DNA from: a virus
DNA: 64,000 nucleotides
Virus record (IMG/VR): IMGVR_UViG_3300023082_000010
Coordinates: 1-64,000 of that record
Direction: 5' to 3' (one strand)
Shown: piece by piece, positions 4,141-57,418 of the stretch
How positions within the stretch are numbered: position 1 is the first letter of the stretch
Layout of the letters: every line of letters begins with the position of its first letter
Notes under the pieces: model-generated
Database searches by the model: none
Told to the model about the DNA's origin: nothing
The model's input: only the letters and a program-made list of their open reading frames with translations
Translations under genes and position numbers: made by a program

Positions 4141-5379
4141 TCAATCATTTGTAAGCCAGTCCTGAAAGAGCTTACGCATACGTTTTGACAAAATGCAAAT
4201 CTTAATTGGCTTTCCGTCACGAATTTGTGAACGCCATACAAATTGTACAAGCTCAGACAATGCAAACTGATTATTGTCAACATCCACACCATAATCTTGT
4301 AGGAATGAGGAAACAGAAACATGAGTAAAACGGTTATAAGCATGCACCAATACAGAACGATCACGATAAGCGTTTGTTGCTCTTGCTGTACAGGCTAGGA
4401 AGCATCCTTGTGCAATACCATCCTCATCAATCTCGCCATCTCCTGCACTATATCCTCTAGGTGAAACCTTTCTTGCACCTGAACGTGTCTGGTTAACAAG
4501 TGTAGACGGTACACACCAAACAAGATCAGTATTCTTAGCTTTGTTAGCATCACCAATAGCACGAATAGATTTACCAATAGCTGTCAAATCTTTCTGTGTA
4601 GCTTTTGAATACCAACTAGACGATAAAGATTCACCAGCCCACTCTTTAACTTGCTTATCTCCAACAAATTCAATCAAAGGAAAAAGGTTCGATTTACTCT
4701 GTTCATTAAGCTTTACCTCTGTAAAGTCAACAACTTCAACCCCTTTAAGTTTAAGGAATGAAGACATAATACTGCCTTTAAAAAGGTAAGTAAGAACAAT
4801 AACTCTTTCTGCTGAATGTATCAAACCAATAGGCAACTGAGTAACAAACATACTATCACTGCGTTTAGCCTGATAAATCATTCCAAGCTTACACATATTC
4901 GCAAGTTTAGTGTATTTAGCACCATCTTTAATCTCATCATTAAGCCAAACTAAACATCCATCTTCTTCAACCCTAATCTGTTTCAAATCTTTAAGGTAAT
5001 CAAAGTCAGACTTAGTGTAACCAGCATTCAGAGGTTCAATAAAACTTACTTCTTCATCAAGTATAAGTGTATATTTGTTTTGTTTAATCCAAAAAAGATG
5101 TGGTTGTTTAAGACTTGAATAAAGAGAGTGTGTAATACTAATATTAACACCAGACTGTAACAAGTCTAGTAAGTGCTCGCCCTTAGTGTCGAACTCTTCT
5201 GTACTAGGTGCAATGAATTTAGATTGAACACAAAAAGCTACAACCCTACCTTCACTCTCACTTAACAAAGGAGTAACATAAATGAATGGAGTAGTAGGGT
5301 TCGCTTCACACCACTTAAGAATAGAAGTAGTTTTACCACTACCCATTAGCTTATCTAAAACCTCAATCTTAAAGGTCAT
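4141..5379 (-). CDS. SF2/DEAD-like helicase-type P-loop ATPase, copy 1 (paralog of 27518-28756)
   Basis: Walker A MGSGKTT, motif Ia IYVTP, Walker B LILDEE, C-terminal ELVQFVWRSQIR. Confidence 0.75.
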   Translation of the reverse strand: MTFKIEVLDKLMGSGKTTSILKWCEANPTTPFIYVTPLLSESEGRVVAFCVQSKFIAPSTEEFDTKGEHLLDLLQSGVNISITHSLYSSLKQPHLFWIKQNKYTLILDEEVSFIEPLNAGYTKSDFDYLKDLKQIRVEEDGCLVWLNDEIKDGAKYTKLANMCKLGMIYQAKRSDSMFVTQLPIGLIHSAERVIVLTYLFKGSIMSSFLKLKGVEVVDFTEVKLNEQSKSNLFPLIEFVGDKQVKEWAGESLSSSWYSKATQKDLTAIGKSIRAIGDANKAKNTDLVWCVPSTLVNQTRSGARKVSPRGYSAGDGEIDEDGIAQGCFLACTARATNAYRDRSVLVHAYNRFTHVSVSSFLQDYGVDVDNNQFALSELVQFVWRSQIRDGKPIKICILSKRMRKLFQDWLTND

Positions 5380-5664: not shown

Positions 5665-5849
5665 TATATGTTCTCCGAAGATGGAACTACTTTACAAGTG
5701 TATATAGTGTATTCATAATCAGAATTCTTTAATTCAAATGAGCGTTTGTCTAAGTTTGCATCTTTCGATGATTCGTAAAAAGCAACAGTTTCTTCTGTTG
5801 TCTCAAAACTGTATCGTACCCACTTGTTTAGTTGATATATTACTTTCAT
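5664..5849 (-). CDS. hypothetical protein
   Basis: 61-aa ORF, ATGA overlap. Confidence 0.55.
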   Translation of the reverse strand: MKVIYQLNKWVRYSFETTEETVAFYESSKDANLDKRSFELKNSDYEYTIYTCKVVPSSENI

Positions 5850-6058
5850 TTTACAACCTCAGAATTAACAAAACCGTTAACTATCTGCCTGTGTTGGACA
5901 ACGTACATCAAGGGCTCAACATTCCCAACTCTTGCAAACAATCCATAATTCTCTTTCAAAAAGTCATCAGAAGGAATTCTTTCAGAATAAATATAAGAGT
6001 GCGTTCCGATAGGAACAAGAACTTCAATCTGGTAGCAGACAACTTCCTCGTCAACCAT
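5846..6058 (-). CDS. hypothetical protein
   Basis: 70-aa ORF with a strong AAGGAGG SD. Confidence 0.6.
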   Translation of the reverse strand: MVDEEVVCYQIEVLVPIGTHSYIYSERIPSDDFLKENYGLFARVGNVEPLMYVVQHRQIVNGFVNSEVVK

Positions 6059-9482: not shown

Positions 9483-11342
9483 GTGAGTAACATCCGTAAA
9501 GTTATTGAAAACTATCTAGATGTTACTGGTGATAAATGTTGCTGCCCTTTCCATAAGGAACGCACACCATCGCTAAACATTTTTGATGATACAAATTCAT
9601 TCTATTGCTTTGGTTGTGGTCAATCAGGTGATGAGATTGAATTTGTTAAAGAACATAAAGGGTTAAGCTTTCTTGATGCAGTTAAAGAAGTCTGTTCAAT
9701 TCTTAAAATGACGAAAGAGGAGCTTATGGAAAGTAAAGATAAAGAAAAGGTTGCTGAGAAAGCAGCAATTGAGAACGCCGAAGCTATGGATATTGAAGAA
9801 GTTAAAGCGCTCATCCAATCCACAGGTTATGTTAGCCACGGTTATCGTGGTATTCGTGATGAGATTAATAAGTTCTTTGGTCACTTGAGTAAACTTGATT
9901 CTCACGGCAATGTACTTGCTCGGTACTACCCTGAGACTAATAACAACGGTAAGTTGACACGTTATAAATGCAGAAACACACCAAAAGATTTTAGTCACGG
10001 AAGTTTGGGAAATGGTGGAAGTAAAAGTCAACTAAGCGGGCAAGTTAAATTCAAGTCCCCGGCTAAGTACGTGCTCTACGTTGGCGGCGAAGAGGATAAA
10101 GCAGCAGCTTTTCAGATGCTTAAGGACAATCGCAAAGATCAAGATTTTGATCCTATCCCCGTAGTAAGCTCTACAGTGGGTGAGTTGACAGCTGCTAAAC
10201 AAGCCGCTCAACAGTATGAGTGGTTTGATATGTATGATATTATCATCATTGGGATGGATAATGATGAAGCTGGACGTGCTGCTGCAAAGAAAGTTGCAGA
10301 TGTATTACCTAAAGAGAAAGTACGGATTGCTACGTGGTCGGGCAAAGATCCAAATCAGATGCTTATCGATGGTAAAGAAAAGCAGTTTGTTCGTGACTTC
10401 TACAATGCTAAAGAGTTCATCAGCAGTGGTATTTCATCTTCTGGCGATGCTGAAGCCGGGTTGGCTGAATTCTTGACAGCACCTAAGATTGGCTTGCCAC
10501 CACAACTGAGTAAACTTGAAGCAGCAATGCGAGGAGGCATTAAATCCACTGGTTCAGTTGTCAATATTATCGGTGACACGAGTATTGGTAAGAGCTTTCT
10601 GTCTGATACGTTGATCTATCATTGGTTGTTCAATAGTCCTCGTGTTCCAACTATTGTCAGTCTTGAGCGTACAAAGGAAGAATTGACAATTGATTTGCTG
10701 TCAATGCATCTTAAGAAAAACCTGATGTGGTTCACAGATGGTCATGATGCTGTTGACTATTTGAATCAACCAGAAGTGCAAGTGTTAAAGAATAATCTTT
10801 TGTACAATGATGCTGGAGAGCCACGCTTTTTCATCATTGATGAGCGAGAGGGTGAGATTGAACTTCTTAAACGTCAGATGGAAAAGAGTGGTAAGGTGAA
10901 TGATTCACGGTTGATGGTGATTGATCCACTAACAGACTTCTTGCGATCTTTGGGTACAGAGGTTCAAGAAAACTTCATGATGTGGCAGAAGCTACAAAAG
11001 AAAAATGGGTTTGTATTCATTAACATTCTTCATACTCGCAAGCCTCCAACTGACAAAGATGGTAATGTGCGTAAAGTAACCGAATATGATGCGTTAGGGT
11101 CGGGGACATTTATTCAGTCAGCAGACGTGAACATTGTGATCAATCGTGATAAAATGGCTAGTGATCCGATTGAGAAAAATACTACGTATGTTGACATGCC
11201 AAAGTGTCGTGGGGGTATCACCGGTGAGATTTGTGCGCTATACTATGACGCTGAAACTCGTCAGCAGTATGATCGTGATGAGTATTTTGATCGTCAGGTA
11301 GATGAACCACCGCAACATCATGCGGATGAGATTGATTTTTAA
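9483..11342 (+). CDS. DNA primase-helicase
   Basis: CHC2 Zn finger (CPFH...CFGC), TOPRIM (GGEED, MDNDEAG), SF4 helicase Walker A GDTSIGKS and VIDP. Confidence 0.92.
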   Translation: MSNIRKVIENYLDVTGDKCCCPFHKERTPSLNIFDDTNSFYCFGCGQSGDEIEFVKEHKGLSFLDAVKEVCSILKMTKEELMESKDKEKVAEKAAIENAEAMDIEEVKALIQSTGYVSHGYRGIRDEINKFFGHLSKLDSHGNVLARYYPETNNNGKLTRYKCRNTPKDFSHGSLGNGGSKSQLSGQVKFKSPAKYVLYVGGEEDKAAAFQMLKDNRKDQDFDPIPVVSSTVGELTAAKQAAQQYEWFDMYDIIIIGMDNDEAGRAAAKKVADVLPKEKVRIATWSGKDPNQMLIDGKEKQFVRDFYNAKEFISSGISSSGDAEAGLAEFLTAPKIGLPPQLSKLEAAMRGGIKSTGSVVNIIGDTSIGKSFLSDTLIYHWLFNSPRVPTIVSLERTKEELTIDLLSMHLKKNLMWFTDGHDAVDYLNQPEVQVLKNNLLYNDAGEPRFFIIDEREGEIELLKRQMEKSGKVNDSRLMVIDPLTDFLRSLGTEVQENFMMWQKLQKKNGFVFINILHTRKPPTDKDGNVRKVTEYDALGSGTFIQSADVNIVINRDKMASDPIEKNTTYVDMPKCRGGITGEICALYYDAETRQQYDRDEYFDRQVDEPPQHHADEIDF

Positions 11343-11352
11343 GGAGAAGGTT

Positions 11353-13530
11353 TTGGATAAGAAGTGGTATGAATCAGATTTCATTTACGATCTCGAAAGT
11401 TACCCGAATGTATTCTCTATGAGCATCGTTCATGCTTCGGGTAAACATATGCGAGTCTTTGAGATTAGCGACCGTAAGAATGAGATTGAAGGGATTGCTA
11501 AATGCTTGCGGTATCTGGTTCAGAATAAATGTCGTATGGTAGGTTTCAATAATCTCTCATACGACTACACTCTTATCCATGAAATCGTAAAGTCTTTGAA
11601 AGAAGCTAAGGAGACAGGTAAAGCTCCAAAGATCACTGCCCAAAAGCTTTACAATTTAACAACACAAATCATTACAAAGATGCAAAATTCTGATGATAAG
11701 TGGTATGGGATTAAAGAGTCTGATCATTTTATTCAGCAAGTGGATTTGTATAAGATTCACCATATGGATAATATTGCAAAGGCTACATCGTTGAAAATGC
11801 TTGAAGTGAATATGCGGTCTACTAACGTAGAGGATTTACCATTCCCTGTTGGTAAAAAACTTTCAAGCTCAGAGATTGATACACTGCTTTATTACAACCA
11901 ACACGATGTAAAAGAAACGCTTAAGTTTTACTACTACTCTTATGAGGCTATTGAACTTCGGAAAGAATTGTCAGAGAAGTTTGGTTTTGACTGCACAAAT
12001 TCAAGTGATTCTAAGATTGGTGAAACTCTCTTTATTAATCGACTTGAGCAGGCACAGAAAGGTTTGTGTTATACCACAGGGAAGTTTGGACGTAAGATTA
12101 ATCAGACAAAACGAGATACTATTCCTCTGAAGGAATGTCTCTTTAAGTATCTGAAGTTTGAACGTCCAGAGTTCAAGGCTGTGCATCAGTGGTTGATGGG
12201 TCAGACTGTCAGTGAAACAAAAGGTGTGTTCAATGATTACGAGGAGCACCAAATTGGTGAGCTTGCTAAATACGCTCAGATGAAAACTAAGAAGGTGCTG
12301 TTCAAGAATAAGTTAAATCTGGATAAGAACGGTAAAGCTAAACCAGACTTTGATTTTACAGATATCAATCACCTTGAAGAGCTTCAGAATCAAAAAGAGT
12401 TGTTCCTTAAAGAACATCCTATGGGATTGTTTGAGGAGAAAGAAACAAAGACTTCGCGTTCACACAAGATTAAAGTAAGCGGTACATACCGTGTAGTTGA
12501 GGCAATCAACACAGTTATTGATGATAAAGTGTATGTCTATGGTACTGGTGGTATCCATATGTCTATTGAAAGTCAGACTGTTAGGTCTGATGATGAATGG
12601 ATGATTCTGGACGCCGATGTCACCTCGATGTACCCGAGCATTAGTATTGCTAACAATGTTTATCCTGAGCACTTAGGTCAAACATTTTGTAAGGTGTACA
12701 AGGATCTGTTTAATGAACGTGGTCGATACCCTAAAGGCAGTGGTCCAAACGGTGCTATTAAGCTTGCATTGAACTCTGTCTATGGTAAGTCCAATAGCGA
12801 GTTTAGTCCGCTTTATGACCCTAAATATACCCTGACAATCACGCTTAATGGTCAACTCTGTTTGTCTATGCTTGCAGAACAATTGATTGGTTTGGGTTGT
12901 CAGATGATTCAATGTAATACGGATGGTGTGACAGCTTTGGTTCCACGTAGTAAGGAGGCTGAGTATTATGCAATCACAAAAGCTTGGGAAGAAACCGTTG
13001 GACTTAAGCTTGAGTATGCTGTATATTCAATGATGGCACTGGGAAATGTTAATAATTACGTAGCGGTTTATGAAGATGGTAAGGTGAAAAGTAAAGGACA
13101 GTATGAGGTTGCTCACTTTGAGAAGCTTGGATGGTCTAAGAATCACTCTGCAATGATTGTGGCTAAAGCTGCACTTGAGTATATTGTTTATGGAGTGGAT
13201 ATTGAAAAAACTATTCGCGATTGCAAAGACGAGTATGATTTCTGTCTTCGTGCGAAAATTCCACGTAGCTCACAGCTTTATTTGTGTTATGAAGATGGTC
13301 GTGAAGTACAACAGCAAAACATCTGCCGATATTATCCATCGGAACAAGGTGGTAAGTTGGTCAAGTTGATGCCTGCCCTGATTAAAGGTGGTGACTGGCG
13401 TAGGCTTGGACTGGACACTGAATGGAAAGTCGAGACGTGCAACAATATTGCTGAATTTGATTGGAATAAACTCAACTATGATTATTACATCAAAGAGGCT
13501 CAAAAACTAATCGATGGTGTGGGGATGTGA
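11353..13530 (+). CDS. DNA polymerase, family B-type, with 3'-5' exonuclease
   Basis: ExoI YDLESY; motif A DADVTSMYPS; motif B KLALNSVYGK; motif C NTDG. Probable TTG start at 11353 after AAGGAG. Confidence 0.9.
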   Translation: MDKKWYESDFIYDLESYPNVFSMSIVHASGKHMRVFEISDRKNEIEGIAKCLRYLVQNKCRMVGFNNLSYDYTLIHEIVKSLKEAKETGKAPKITAQKLYNLTTQIITKMQNSDDKWYGIKESDHFIQQVDLYKIHHMDNIAKATSLKMLEVNMRSTNVEDLPFPVGKKLSSSEIDTLLYYNQHDVKETLKFYYYSYEAIELRKELSEKFGFDCTNSSDSKIGETLFINRLEQAQKGLCYTTGKFGRKINQTKRDTIPLKECLFKYLKFERPEFKAVHQWLMGQTVSETKGVFNDYEEHQIGELAKYAQMKTKKVLFKNKLNLDKNGKAKPDFDFTDINHLEELQNQKELFLKEHPMGLFEEKETKTSRSHKIKVSGTYRVVEAINTVIDDKVYVYGTGGIHMSIESQTVRSDDEWMILDADVTSMYPSISIANNVYPEHLGQTFCKVYKDLFNERGRYPKGSGPNGAIKLALNSVYGKSNSEFSPLYDPKYTLTITLNGQLCLSMLAEQLIGLGCQMIQCNTDGVTALVPRSKEAEYYAITKAWEETVGLKLEYAVYSMMALGNVNNYVAVYEDGKVKSKGQYEVAHFEKLGWSKNHSAMIVAKAALEYIVYGVDIEKTIRDCKDEYDFCLRAKIPRSSQLYLCYEDGREVQQQNICRYYPSEQGGKLVKLMPALIKGGDWRRLGLDTEWKVETCNNIAEFDWNKLNYDYYIKEAQKLIDGVGM

Positions 13531-54576: not shown

Positions 54577-56300
54577 TCAAAGCCTGAATTCGTTTGTCTT
54601 GGTGTAGATGGGAACTGCGAAGGATGGTACGCTTTTGTTTTGTGCCAAAGTGAGGTAGGCCAAAGAAGCACAGTCTGCCATATCATCGTGGCCCATTTCT
54701 CCACTACGTCTCTGTCCATCAAAAGCTTCAAGTTCCTTGTGAAAGAAATCATTATCCGCTACAATTTTATTCCAAAGATCATTGCAGCAACCTTTCACAA
54801 TAGAAACAACACCTAGTTCGGCAGATGCAGCAAAAGGTCTGAAGGAGTCCAGCTTACCTAGTGATGCTCTTTTTGTTTTAACCACATATCCATGTTCAAT
54901 AATAGAACGAGCTATTAGCATAGTAGATGCCTTAGCTGCTGGGTTAGGGTCTTCTCCGAGAATAATTTCTACTTCGGGACCATCCCTTTGAGCACTGTCT
55001 AGGATTTGTTTTTCCCAATCACCAAATGTTATTCGTGTTCTATAGACATCAAGGATCACATAATTACCATTTCTCAGCTTACCAAGCTTCAATGAGGCGA
55101 AGTAATCGGGCGATCTGTTTCCGTCGTGTGGCAAAGTGCCAGCGAAGTCAAAAACCCGAACTACCTTTGAAAACTCTGAATGGTGGGGTGCTTGAGTCAA
55201 CACTGGAACAGTATTCCTATCGTAATAGGTGCTGTTCTCCGGCTTTGCAAACCAATTCCCATAGAGCAATCGCTCGCGGTCAAGTTTTGGAAGAGATTCC
55301 AAATTTGAGCGATATAGTGGGTTACTTTTCTTCAGTGGGGGGTTATCATCAATAGTGCCAAATAACCCTTGAAAGCTAATTGGCTTTACTTGATCGTCAT
55401 GTTCGGCTTCTAATTTAGGATTTCCGTACTTGTCAATAAGCTCTTGCGCACTTTCACCCCAAACAATATCACCAGCCACTCGGAGCAGATAACGAACTGT
55501 GCCATTCTTTTCTGGGTCTGGGCGGCCAGCTAGTGCATGGCCCTCTGGATATAAATACCATTGTGCGTACTTTAGAAGCCAGCTTGAATTGTCAGGATTG
55601 CATGACATGACAATTCCGTGGACATTCTTCGCCTCAGACCTAAGCCGCGACCAAAGCCACCAAATATCTTCTTCCTCCGCGTGAGTTGCCTCATCATAAA
55701 AGATATTTGAAATTTGAATACCTTGATATTTCTTAGCTGCGTTAGCATTCTCATAGTGCGAGAAGCTAATCTCTGCACCACTAGAAAATACTAATTTTTG
55801 ATCTTTCAATCGAATTTTAAGACTAGGATCATACTGACTATATAGTTTAACTGCTTCCTGAAACAGACCACCAGAAGCCATAATCGCACTGGAGTTCTTA
55901 CGAATACAATAAGCCTTATAGTTTGGATCTTCTACGAAACGAAGATGCCGCATTAACCCAACATAACTTTTGGAACTACCCAATAAATTCTAAGGTTCGT
56001 TAAACCTTCTCACATTTCTATGAGGATCGGACTATATCACCTGTTATTTCTAACAGCCCCCCGTTTCGATTGCACTTGCAACCTACTCTGCTACACTCAT
56101 CACAGATAGTCTCTGAACGTTACTTATTTCTAAGTCTTCGCTGCTGATTACCTTTAACTTAATAGTAAGGGTTCCAGCAATTAGAGGGGTTTAAAGCGGC
56201 CCGTAGTTCAAGCCGCCCCTCCAACTAGGAGGATTTGAGCATCTGAGAGCAGGTATTGCGATTGGAACCTGCTCTGAGCTGAGATAACAGTTTCTGTCAT
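54577..56300 (-). CDS. terL: terminase large subunit, spliced (exon 1 56211-56300, exon 2 54577-55980; 497 aa)
   Basis: The exons join to give LLVGGAA|GSSKS (Walker A); Walker B FYDEATH, SCNP, nuclease DFAGT...HDDMAD. Confidence 0.92.
55981..56210 (-). ncRNA. group I self-splicing intron (IA2-like, ORF-less, 230 nt) in terL
   Basis: P AAUUGCUGGAA, Q AAUCAGCAGC, R GUUCAGAGACUA, S GAUAUAGUCC; P1 with U.G at the 5' splice site; P10; P7.1/P7.2; terminal G. Confidence 0.93.
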
Positions 56301-57034
56301 ACTTGCACCAGTTTAATCCTTTTAGTTCTTGGAGTTTTTGAGGCTGCTGATTTGTTTTCAAACTCAGTAGCGAAAATACAAGCTTCTCTAGAATAAACTT
56401 TATTACCTTCAAATTTAAGATCTTTGTCTAAATTATAAGGGCTTGTACCGAGCTGTTTAGCTTCCAACCAAGAATCAAAATTATCTAAACTGGAGATGTC
56501 TGAAAGAAAGTTAGCAAAACAATGCCACCTCGTATCTACGAAACATTTGCCAAAATACCCATGAGCATCTTTAGGATTATAACAACGCTTCATCATATTT
56601 GACCAAAGCTGCTTAGCTTGTTTCCAATAAGGCAGAAGCTCATACTCTCCTAAATAACCAATCCCAAGAAAGGTTTTGCTATAAGGATCGGATATTTTAC
56701 CCATCCGTACATTATCAATGTGTACTTCTGCTGTGTAGCCTGTATCATAGAATTGAACTACGCACTTCTTGGACTTCTTACTAATAATTTTTCCACTGTA
56801 TCCAGCATTATTAGTAAACTCTTCGTCCCAAGGTTGCCAGTCGTGAGCTGTACATTTTGGTACGCTAAAGTCTCTAACCTTACCAGCAAGTACATTGCCA
56901 GCGTCAGCTGTTGTTTCATAACCTGTAGTAACAAATCTTAAATGTAGTTTTCGGCCATCTCGACCAATAACTTCCATAATTCCGTAGCCATTCGACTCGT
57001 AAAACTGATCATAAATTTTTCTTACATTAGCCAT
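56297..57034 (-). CDS. free-standing HNH-type homing endonuclease
   Basis: FLGIGYLG, W.NM..RCY, W.CF.NF, LDKDL...GNK.YS.E.C.F; its stop overlaps the terL ATG (ATGA). Confidence 0.8.
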   Translation of the reverse strand: MANVRKIYDQFYESNGYGIMEVIGRDGRKLHLRFVTTGYETTADAGNVLAGKVRDFSVPKCTAHDWQPWDEEFTNNAGYSGKIISKKSKKCVVQFYDTGYTAEVHIDNVRMGKISDPYSKTFLGIGYLGEYELLPYWKQAKQLWSNMMKRCYNPKDAHGYFGKCFVDTRWHCFANFLSDISSLDNFDSWLEAKQLGTSPYNLDKDLKFEGNKVYSREACIFATEFENKSAASKTPRTKRIKLVQV

Positions 57035-57073: not shown

Positions 57074-57418
57074 TTATTTCTTCTCAAAACTTTCTTCATA
57101 CTGTCGAATAAGCTGTGCTCTGTCGCGACCACTAATGCCACGTTCTTTACAGACAGCTTTCAACTTATCCCATTCAAATTCTTCAAGCTGCTCTTTACTA
57201 TACTGCAACTCAACAGGATACACCCGAACACCATTCACCATGTCATCTTCAAGAAACTCTTCAGTTTCAACGTTCAGCATGACTTTATTCGGAAAGGTAT
57301 TTTTGGTTGGATAACTGCTGTCAATCGTAGCACCGAGGTTAGCGAACCGTACCACATTCTCAAGAAATTTAATCCCTGAGCTATCTGTTGCTTTAAGCTC
57401 TACTTTATAAGTATTCAC
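57074..57418 (-). CDS. hypothetical protein with a C-terminal Rho-N/HeH-like motif
   Basis: LE..EW.KLK.VCKERGISGR.RA.LI. Confidence 0.6.
   Translation of the reverse strand: MNTYKVELKATDSSGIKFLENVVRFANLGATIDSSYPTKNTFPNKVMLNVETEEFLEDDMVNGVRVYPVELQYSKEQLEEFEWDKLKAVCKERGISGRDRAQLIRQYEESFEKK

Follow-up and report, generated by a model that had tools for sequence, protein, structure and literature searches.

A compact group I intron, predicted to be self-splicing, in the P-loop codons of the large terminase gene of an uncultured phage

The gene for the large terminase subunit (terL, product TerL) of an uncultured phage is interrupted in the codons of its P-loop (Walker A motif) by a 230-nucleotide (nt) insert that carries the sequence and structural features of a compact group I intron. 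The phage is represented by the IMG/VR virus record IMGVR_UViG_3300023082_000010 (92,420 bp, rated 100% complete), and the stretch analysed here, called the window, comprises positions 1 to 64,000 of that record (64,000 nt). All coordinates given below are window coordinates. From sequence comparison, it is estimated with a probability of about 93% that the insert functions as a group I intron and that TerL is restored by its removal. The interrupted gene is composed of the following parts.

Positions 56211 to 56300, minus strand: TerL exon 1, 30 amino acids (aa) ending in LLVGGAA, the first half of the P-loop.
Positions 55981 to 56210, minus strand: group I intron of 230 nt, IA2-type and without an open reading frame (ORF), recognised by Rfam RF00028, covariation and the minimum free energy (MFE) fold.
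Positions 54577 to 55980, minus strand: TerL exon 2, opening with GSSKSYVG (second half of the P-loop) and containing the remaining ATPase domain and the nuclease domain.

The ATG of exon 1 overlaps the stop codon of the upstream ORF (ATGA), and its frame is closed right after codon 30 by an in-frame TGA, which represents the first three bases of the intron (56210-56208). The intron ends with the G at 55981, and the frame of exon 2 opens at 55980 with GGT AGT TCC AAA (GSSK), the start of a 467-codon stretch. Exon 2 matched Pfam Terminase_6N (PF03237, 5e-17) and phrog_979, annotated as 'terminase large subunit' (5e-140), while a match to Terminase_6C (PF17289, 1.8e-4) reached 22.0 bits, slightly below the cut-off of 22.6. 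Hundreds of homologs were obtained with exon 2 as query; the intact ones of ~500 aa were 78-86% identical (P0003-P0006: 78-85%). These intact proteins run through the junction without interruption, as ...SDAQILLVGGAAGSSKSYVGLMRHLRF... (VGGAA, then GSSKS). Exon 1 is 57-74% identical to their first ~30 residues, and exon 2 starts exactly at GSSKS.

When position 56211 was joined in silico to position 55980, a TerL of 497 aa without internal stop was obtained, and BLASTP aligned it to P0003-P0006 in a single collinear alignment with no gap at the junction. The complete Walker A motif GGAAGSSKS is present only after splicing, as the insertion point lies between the codons of Ala30 and Gly31 of the P-loop (GGAA/GSSKS, the slash marking the insertion). 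A junction shifted by one base would yield Ala-Cys-Ser and not the conserved Ala-Gly-Ser, and the intron bounds are therefore set at 56210-55981. An earlier reading of this DNA from its letters and ORFs, hereafter the sequence-only reading, had placed exon 1 at 56300-56211 and the intron at 56210-55981; both were exact to the base, and its claim that the intron splits the Walker A motif agrees with the intact homologs, which read VGGAA/GSSKS across the junction. It had also predicted that automated annotation would truncate TerL. The TerL called in this genome, P0001, has 458 aa and starts past the P-loop, so that the foreseen annotation error has indeed occurred; N-truncated lengths are also seen in about one third of the homologs from the exon 2 search. 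An intein, a frameshift or a bypass was also considered for the gap and rejected, since stops occur in all frames of the insert and its score is that of a full group I ribozyme.

The insert was identified as a ribozyme by Rfam family RF00028 (group I intron), which matched at 56220-56008 on the minus strand with 76.6 bits (E 1e-17; gathering score 50 bits) over model positions 1-253 of 253. This was the sole Rfam RNA family match in the 64-kb window and the sole such match in the 92,420-bp genome. No sense-strand ORF of at least 25 aa occurs within 56210-55981; the 230 nt correspond roughly to the size of the ribozyme alone, and the homing endonuclease ORF that classical mobile introns carry themselves was not found here. 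The proposed helices are listed below; in the window copy all 71 of the 71 proposed pairs are standard pairs.

Positions 56194 to 56218, minus strand: P1 hairpin, with exon strand 56218-56211 and internal guide sequence 56201-56194.
Positions 55973 to 55979, minus strand: 3' strand of P10, GUAGUUC, in exon 2; its partner is intron GAACUAC at 56209-56203 (7 bp).
Positions 56057 to 56189, minus strand: P3 domain, with P3 at 56189-56184/56062-56057, enclosing P4, P5 and P6/P6a.
Positions 56179-56174/56147-56142, minus strand: P4, UGCUG(G)/(U)CAGCA.
Positions 56170-56167/56154-56151, minus strand: P5.
Positions 56141-56131/56126-56117, minus strand: P6/P6a, with a GAAA loop.
Positions 56030 to 56111 (56111-56107/56034-56030), minus strand: P7, the guanosine-binding helix, GACUA/UAGUC, forming a pseudoknot with P3.
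Positions 56068 to 56106, minus strand: region of P7.1, linker and P7.2, the IA2-type elements.
Positions 56106-56103/56090-56087, minus strand: P7.1, UCUG/CAGA.
Positions 56086-56084, minus strand: G-U-A linker joining P7.1 and P7.2.
Positions 56083-56078/56073-56068, minus strand: P7.2, GGUUGC/GCAAUC.
Positions 55992 to 56056, minus strand: P8-P9.1 region, with the P8, P9 and P9.1 hairpins.
Positions 56056-56051/56046-56041, minus strand: P8, CUGUUA-GAAA-UAACAG.
Positions 56024-56019/56014-56009, minus strand: P9, CUCAUA-GAAA-UGUGAG.
Positions 56008-56003/55997-55992, minus strand: P9.1, AAGGUU/AACCUU.

In P1, exon GCGGCU faces the guide GGCCGC with a U.G pair at the splice site (U56211/G56201) and two further G.U pairs, and the P1 loop (56209-56203) holds the 5' strand of P10. 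The pairing of P3 is CCCCUC/GGGGGG. P2 is deleted in the Rfam alignment, and the spacing from P1 to P3 is only 6 nt. The MFE fold of the intron alone, computed unconstrained, recovers P3, P4, P5, P6, P7.2, P8, P9 and P9.1. The sequence-only reading had named P1, P10, P3, P4, P7, P7.1, P7.2, P8 and P9, all of which pair fully; P5, P6/P6a and P9.1 come in addition to its list. A group I model search, which it had proposed as a check, together with the covariation described below, confirms a group I intron, which is ORF-less, has no P2 and ends in G, as it had stated.

Phage introns of subgroup IA2 are recognised by the presence of P7.1 and P7.2 linked by G-U-A (PMC3428280, PMC4227781). The Pf-WMP3 intron, modelled on the PhiI and W31 introns, is without P2 (PMC3428280). 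In the window intron P7.1 and P7.2 are GUA-linked, the linker being invariant in 16 of 16 homologs, and P2 is absent, so that the IA2 label already given by the sequence-only reading is consistent with the published features. As a P2-less intron possessing both P7.1 and P7.2, it fits the phage IA2 type. The extended P9 domain of IA2 introns comprises P9.0, P9.1 and P9.2; only part of it was identified here, namely P9 and a covarying P9.1.

For comparison, 46 terL loci (designated below by L numbers) were collected from viral contigs, together with 35 loci that have the P3'-P8-P7' core in common. Covariation was assessed on the 16 introns from these collections located at the identical codon boundary, pseudoknots being counted. 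In this set 92.2% of the cells are paired, compared with 77.1% after shuffling (none of 500 shuffles reached the observed value) and with 35-46% (~41%) when the partners were slid by 1-3 columns. Changes on both sides were found at 44 of the 71 pairs, versus 25 in shuffled and 8-15 in slid alignments. The RF00028 score and the covariation over the shuffled and slid controls are far beyond chance.

Compensatory changes occur in each of P1, P3, P4, P5, P6a, P7.2, P8, P9 and P9.1. The core helices P3, P4 and P5 are 100%, 99% and 89% paired, with two-sided changes in all three; such changes affect 5 of 6 pairs in P8, 5 of 6 in P9, 6 of 6 in P9.1 and 4 of 6 in P7.2, which is 100% paired. P1 is 97.7% paired, with three pairs changed on both sides, and its guide tracks synonymous Ala codons (GCG GCU with GGCCGC, GCC GCU with GGCGGC). 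P10 similarly tracks the Gly/Ser codons of exon 2 (GGU AGU or GGA AGU, the intron changing to match), and its five proximal pairs are supported by covariation. The splice sites are conserved as well: the terminal G and the U.G pair of P1 are present in 16 of 16 introns, and a U ends exon 1 in all 16 intron-bearing alleles versus 6 of 27 intron-less ones (Fisher p = 3.6e-7). An in-frame stop codon opens 15 of the 16 introns.

That splicing takes place, and that it is autocatalytic, is inferred from these features. In the proposed pathway, exon GCGGCU would pair with the guide GGCCGC in the pre-mRNA to form P1, with the U.G pair at the cleavage site, and an exogenous guanosine bound in P7 would attack after U56211. 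P10 (GAACUAC with GUAGUUC) would align exon 2, and the freed 3'-OH of exon 1 would attack after the terminal G at 55981. The ligated messenger RNA (mRNA) would read GCGGCU-GGUAGU and encode the full-length terminase of 497 aa; on unspliced RNA, translation would stop at the UGA that opens the intron. The proposal of the sequence-only reading that DNA packaging would depend on self-splicing appears to be a sound one.

Some observations weigh against this reading. The sequencing runs listed as containing the sequence are two DNA runs (leaf-litter metagenome) and no RNA run. The five pairs of P7 are invariant in 16 of 16 sequences, which makes covariation uninformative on this helix, and the two distal pairs of P10 are particular to the window copy. 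The MFE z-score alone is modest (-2.2). In addition, some Bastillevirinae group I introns are described in PMC11878797 as splicing in vivo and not in vitro, and the word 'self' may therefore need qualifying.

This last point bears on a rather improbable alternative, in which the intron is real and not autocatalytic physiologically, a phage or host protein or the translation of exon 1 being needed for it to fold and splice. The behaviour of several Bastillevirinae introns would agree with such assistance, and their authors propose guanosine triphosphate (GTP)-sensing 'molecular switches' in terminase genes (PMC11878797). The window intron is also minimal, with no P2 and a short P5, and the in-frame stop opening 15 of the 16 introns of the family would cause ribosomes to stop right at P1. 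If assisted splicing were true, TerL production would become conditional, providing a regulatory checkpoint on packaging. However, conservation extends over the whole catalytic core and the peripheral elements P7.1, P7.2 and P9.1, and compact IA2 introns, those of T4 for example, self-splice in vitro, which counts against a need for assistance. It is very unlikely, on the other hand, that the intron is a decayed, non-splicing relic and that the phage uses a shorter TerL starting from the TTG at 55983 or from the ATG chosen by the gene caller (458 aa). Such a TTG exists and gene callers do yield the 458-aa P0001, but this protein would be without the GGAA half of the P-loop and the 30 conserved N-terminal residues that intact homologs keep. 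Moreover, the TTG represents the last three intron bases and is not preceded by a Shine-Dalgarno-like sequence, the ribozyme core pairs are all intact in the window copy, and exon 1 retains both its frame and a start codon of its own, which is coupled to the upstream gene. The genome, rated 100% complete, contains no second terL match.

The functional intron favoured here belongs to a widespread and horizontally moving family, a point which the sequence-only reading did not see and which lowers the novelty of the finding. In the closest relatives, L002 and L003 (TerL 82-83% identical), terL is uninterrupted; in many other relatives it is split. The position of the window intron (site A1) is occupied in L004, L006, L011, L020 and L045. 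A second insertion point, site A2 (GG/AA), lies 6 nt upstream of A1; its introns with the common core are those of L005, L016, L021, L051-L053, L062, L067, L074, L076, L078, L079, L082, L093 and L097, and they have the guide GCCUCC with one U-U mismatch in P1. With the intron of L064 at a third position, there are three insertion points within the codons of the P-loop motif. Nearly all the inserts of relatives reach the Rfam threshold, with 57-95 bits; no Rfam match above the cut-off was obtained for the P-loop inserts of L005 and L021.

Group I introns also occur elsewhere in terL. At a second site, after TerL residue ~119-128, introns of ~245-260 nt are present in 13 related phages (L018, L020-L022, L028, L031, L032, L035-L039 and L045), and the terL of the window is uninterrupted there. 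Placed from the alignment and not to the base, this site seems, in our reading, to lie beside the Walker B motif (IFYDE). P-loop and second-site introns are found together in three loci, and a third terL site near the 3' end is occupied in L028 and L045 (L045 4510-4814). L028 has three Rfam group I matches within 3 kb, at 4445-4708 and 5719-6000 among others, one of which is inside the portal gene; the Mu-type portal gene match is also split in L013, L022 and L027.

The introns of L050, L055, L060 and L063, the TerL of which is ~30% identical, share 78-79% identity with the window intron, and same-site introns of the cultured Vibrio phages vB_VpaM_R16F and 1.063.O share 73-74% with it. Since introns that are 78-79% identical are located in TerL genes whose products are ~30% identical, horizontal transfer into the conserved P-loop codons is indicated, and the sequence comparisons point to an intron family that has entered these same codons by horizontal spread between distantly related phages. 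As a separate observation, a sister intron branch having a P2 hairpin interrupts the family-A DNA polymerase gene in L048, L049, L059, L066 and L075. In L049 (intron ~11230-11445), a GIY-YIG endonuclease ORF is located just downstream of the DNA polymerase intron, and BLASTN searches for this branch also matched DNA polymerase genes in FelixO1-like phages of Salmonella and Escherichia.

Among cultured phages, the closest TerL is that of Pseudomonas phage phiPMW (54%), and none of 50,697 phage records was matched by the terL region in a megablast search. The ribozyme itself has homologs in vB_VpaM_R16F (OP793884; first terL intron) and 1.063.O._10N.261.45.C7 (MG592441), the nucleotide identity of 73-74% extending over ~80% of its length. 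These introns have the identical insertion point (GGAA/GSGKS or GGSA/GSGKS), are ORF-less and ~230 nt long and, like that of the window, start right after the exon-final U and end in G. Their carriers differ, being 126-139-kb Vibrio myoviruses with a distant TerL. R16F (L084, 2378-4868) contains four such introns in terL, which was deposited as five 'terminase large subunit' coding sequences (CDSs) separated by gaps of ~230 nt; the R16F paper mentions neither the terminase nor introns (PMC10152775). In 1.063.O (L083, 565-905), the annotated terL CDS starts only behind the intron. This phage resembles the window in having an endonuclease gene (NUMOD4/HNH_3) directly upstream, although that gene is unrelated to the ORF of the window.

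The P2-less IA2 introns in the DNA polymerase genes of cyanophage Pf-WMP3 and the T7-like phages PhiI and W31 have the same P1-P10 organisation with GUA-linked P7.1 and P7.2, an exon-final U that pairs with a G, and a G as the last intron base (PMC3428280). The Pf-WMP3 intron differs in encoding its own HNH nicking endonuclease and in being located in a DNA polymerase gene, whereas the window intron is located in terL and has no ORF. Terminases are among the usual phage targets of group I introns (PMC3984707). In virulent phages, group I introns interrupt terL in Bastillevirinae (such as SIOphi), Twortvirinae and the Shewanella phages KASIA, 1/4 and 1/40, where splicing restores the frame, as was experimentally shown for the SIOphi and KASIA introns (PMC11878797, PMC8541194). 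Most of these introns differ from that of the window in being ~800 nt long and in containing a homing endonuclease ORF, and their host phages are unrelated; a Walker A or P-loop site is not mentioned in the searched text of either paper. The TerL inteins of mycobacteriophages target the same motifs (P-loop and Walker B), with insertion points one residue apart (PMC5050341), but they splice as protein, whereas the window element would be spliced at the RNA level.

As terL group I introns and P-loop inteins are already established, the window intron represents a clean further member and not a new kind of element; this type is well known, and current concepts are unchanged by the finding. It provides a well-supported case of selfish, self-splicing elements targeting those catalytic codons of a phage motor gene that are most conserved. 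In practical terms, gene callers cut the P-loop off TerL, here (458 versus 497 aa) as in many relatives, and such truncated or split terL calls distort TerL-based phylogenies and packaging-type predictions. The cultured Vibrio phages carrying introns of this family offer a tractable system for splicing and intron spread.

The gene upstream of exon 1 could be linked to the mobility of the intron.

Positions 56297 to 57034, minus strand: endonuclease-like ORF of 245 aa, free-standing; it lies outside the intron and directly upstream of exon 1.

This ORF matched phrog_2081 'HNH endonuclease' (1.3e-48) as well as phrog_953 and phrog_374 (range 1e-48 to 1e-16). Members of phrog_2081 are intron-encoded nucleases in Bastillevirinae (PMC11878797). 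Searches of the ORF against Pfam, NCBIfam, PDB sequences and PDB profiles returned nothing significant, and none of its hundreds of homologs has a Pfam domain. Its matches in a protein atlas were phage clusters without names, with an I-HmuI_NUMOD-like label in a minority. The predicted structure (predicted local distance difference test, pLDDT, 88) consists of two tandem SH3/Tudor-like barrels and a C-terminal alpha/beta domain, in which the invariant motif of the family, YNLDKD...GN...C.F...EN, is located. With the whole model, Foldseek gave only weak Tudor/KOW/SH3-like matches, to the two N-terminal barrels; a search with only the C-terminal domain produced no match below E = 1, ColE7, ColE9 and Cas9-HNH being among the noise. 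The best VIA-align result for this domain was the HNH-type PacI (Z 4.6, root mean square deviation 4.0, 90 residues aligned), which is too weak to call, and hhalign revealed no relationship between the domain and the NUMOD4/HNH_3 protein encoded by Vibrio phage 1.063.O. In viral contigs from dozens of phages, members of the family are nearly always immediately upstream or downstream of terL. L002 and L003, the closest relatives, have no such ORF in the interval from the ORF114 homolog to terL, and in the present genome it is therefore regarded as an insertion.

These features raise the tentative possibility of collaborative homing, for which a precedent is described (PMC3984707); it bears on the spread of the intron and leaves its identity as an intron untouched. 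During co-infection, the upstream ORF would mobilise the intron in trans by cutting an intron-less terL at or near the P-loop; repair from the donor would copy in the intron together with exon 1 and the endonuclease gene, and disruption of the target by the intron would protect the donor. The PHROG endonuclease matches, the absence of the ORF from its position in L002 and L003 and its family's almost constant place on one side or the other of terL all agree with this. So do L086-L089, in which 72-74% identical ORF homologs are located at the same position beside 78-79% identical introns while TerL is ~30% identical, and Vibrio phage 1.063.O, in which the unrelated NUMOD4/HNH_3 gene has the same upstream position beside a homologous intron. 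Speculatively, then, the ORF and the ORF-less intron might be the two parts of a mobile cassette that targets the TerL P-loop. On such a reading, and judging from the structure model, the ORF might be a homing endonuclease of an uncharacterised family with a divergent beta-beta-alpha-metal-like domain (LDKD...N...N motif), an assignment that is doubtful at present. If true, the cassette would explain the near-identical ORF and intron pairs in phages with ~30% identical TerL, and the intron would travel with the endonuclease and shield its carrier.

The association is, however, loose. The intron occurs without an ORF homolog in L004, L006, L011 and L020, and an ORF homolog is located upstream of an uninterrupted P-loop in L085/L018, L090-L092 and L096. 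In L018 the sole intron is at the second site, and many ORF homologs are downstream of terL. This co-occurrence is counted on IMG/VR fragments, in which related genomes are not independent samples. Nor is the nuclease identity established, given the lack of a Pfam, NCBIfam or PDB sequence match and the weak fold match to PacI; by reading of the alignment, an invariant Asp (LDKD motif) stands where HNH_3 enzymes have their first His. Compared with known collaborative homing pairs of an ORF-less intron and a free-standing endonuclease, such as the psbA intron of cyanophage S-PM2 and F-CphI, the distribution among relatives is patchy in both systems (PMC3984707), but the nuclease fold of the window ORF is putative and its co-occurrence with the intron only partial.

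Further upstream, a 114-aa ORF at 57074-57418 on the minus strand is without a family match and, in most relatives (24-60% identity), is the conserved neighbour of terL on its upstream side. It may be the small terminase subunit or another packaging factor. In two relatives, transfer RNA (tRNA) genes are located ~2-2.5 kb upstream of terL, at 535-607 in L022 and at 521-593 and 1018-1089 in L036.

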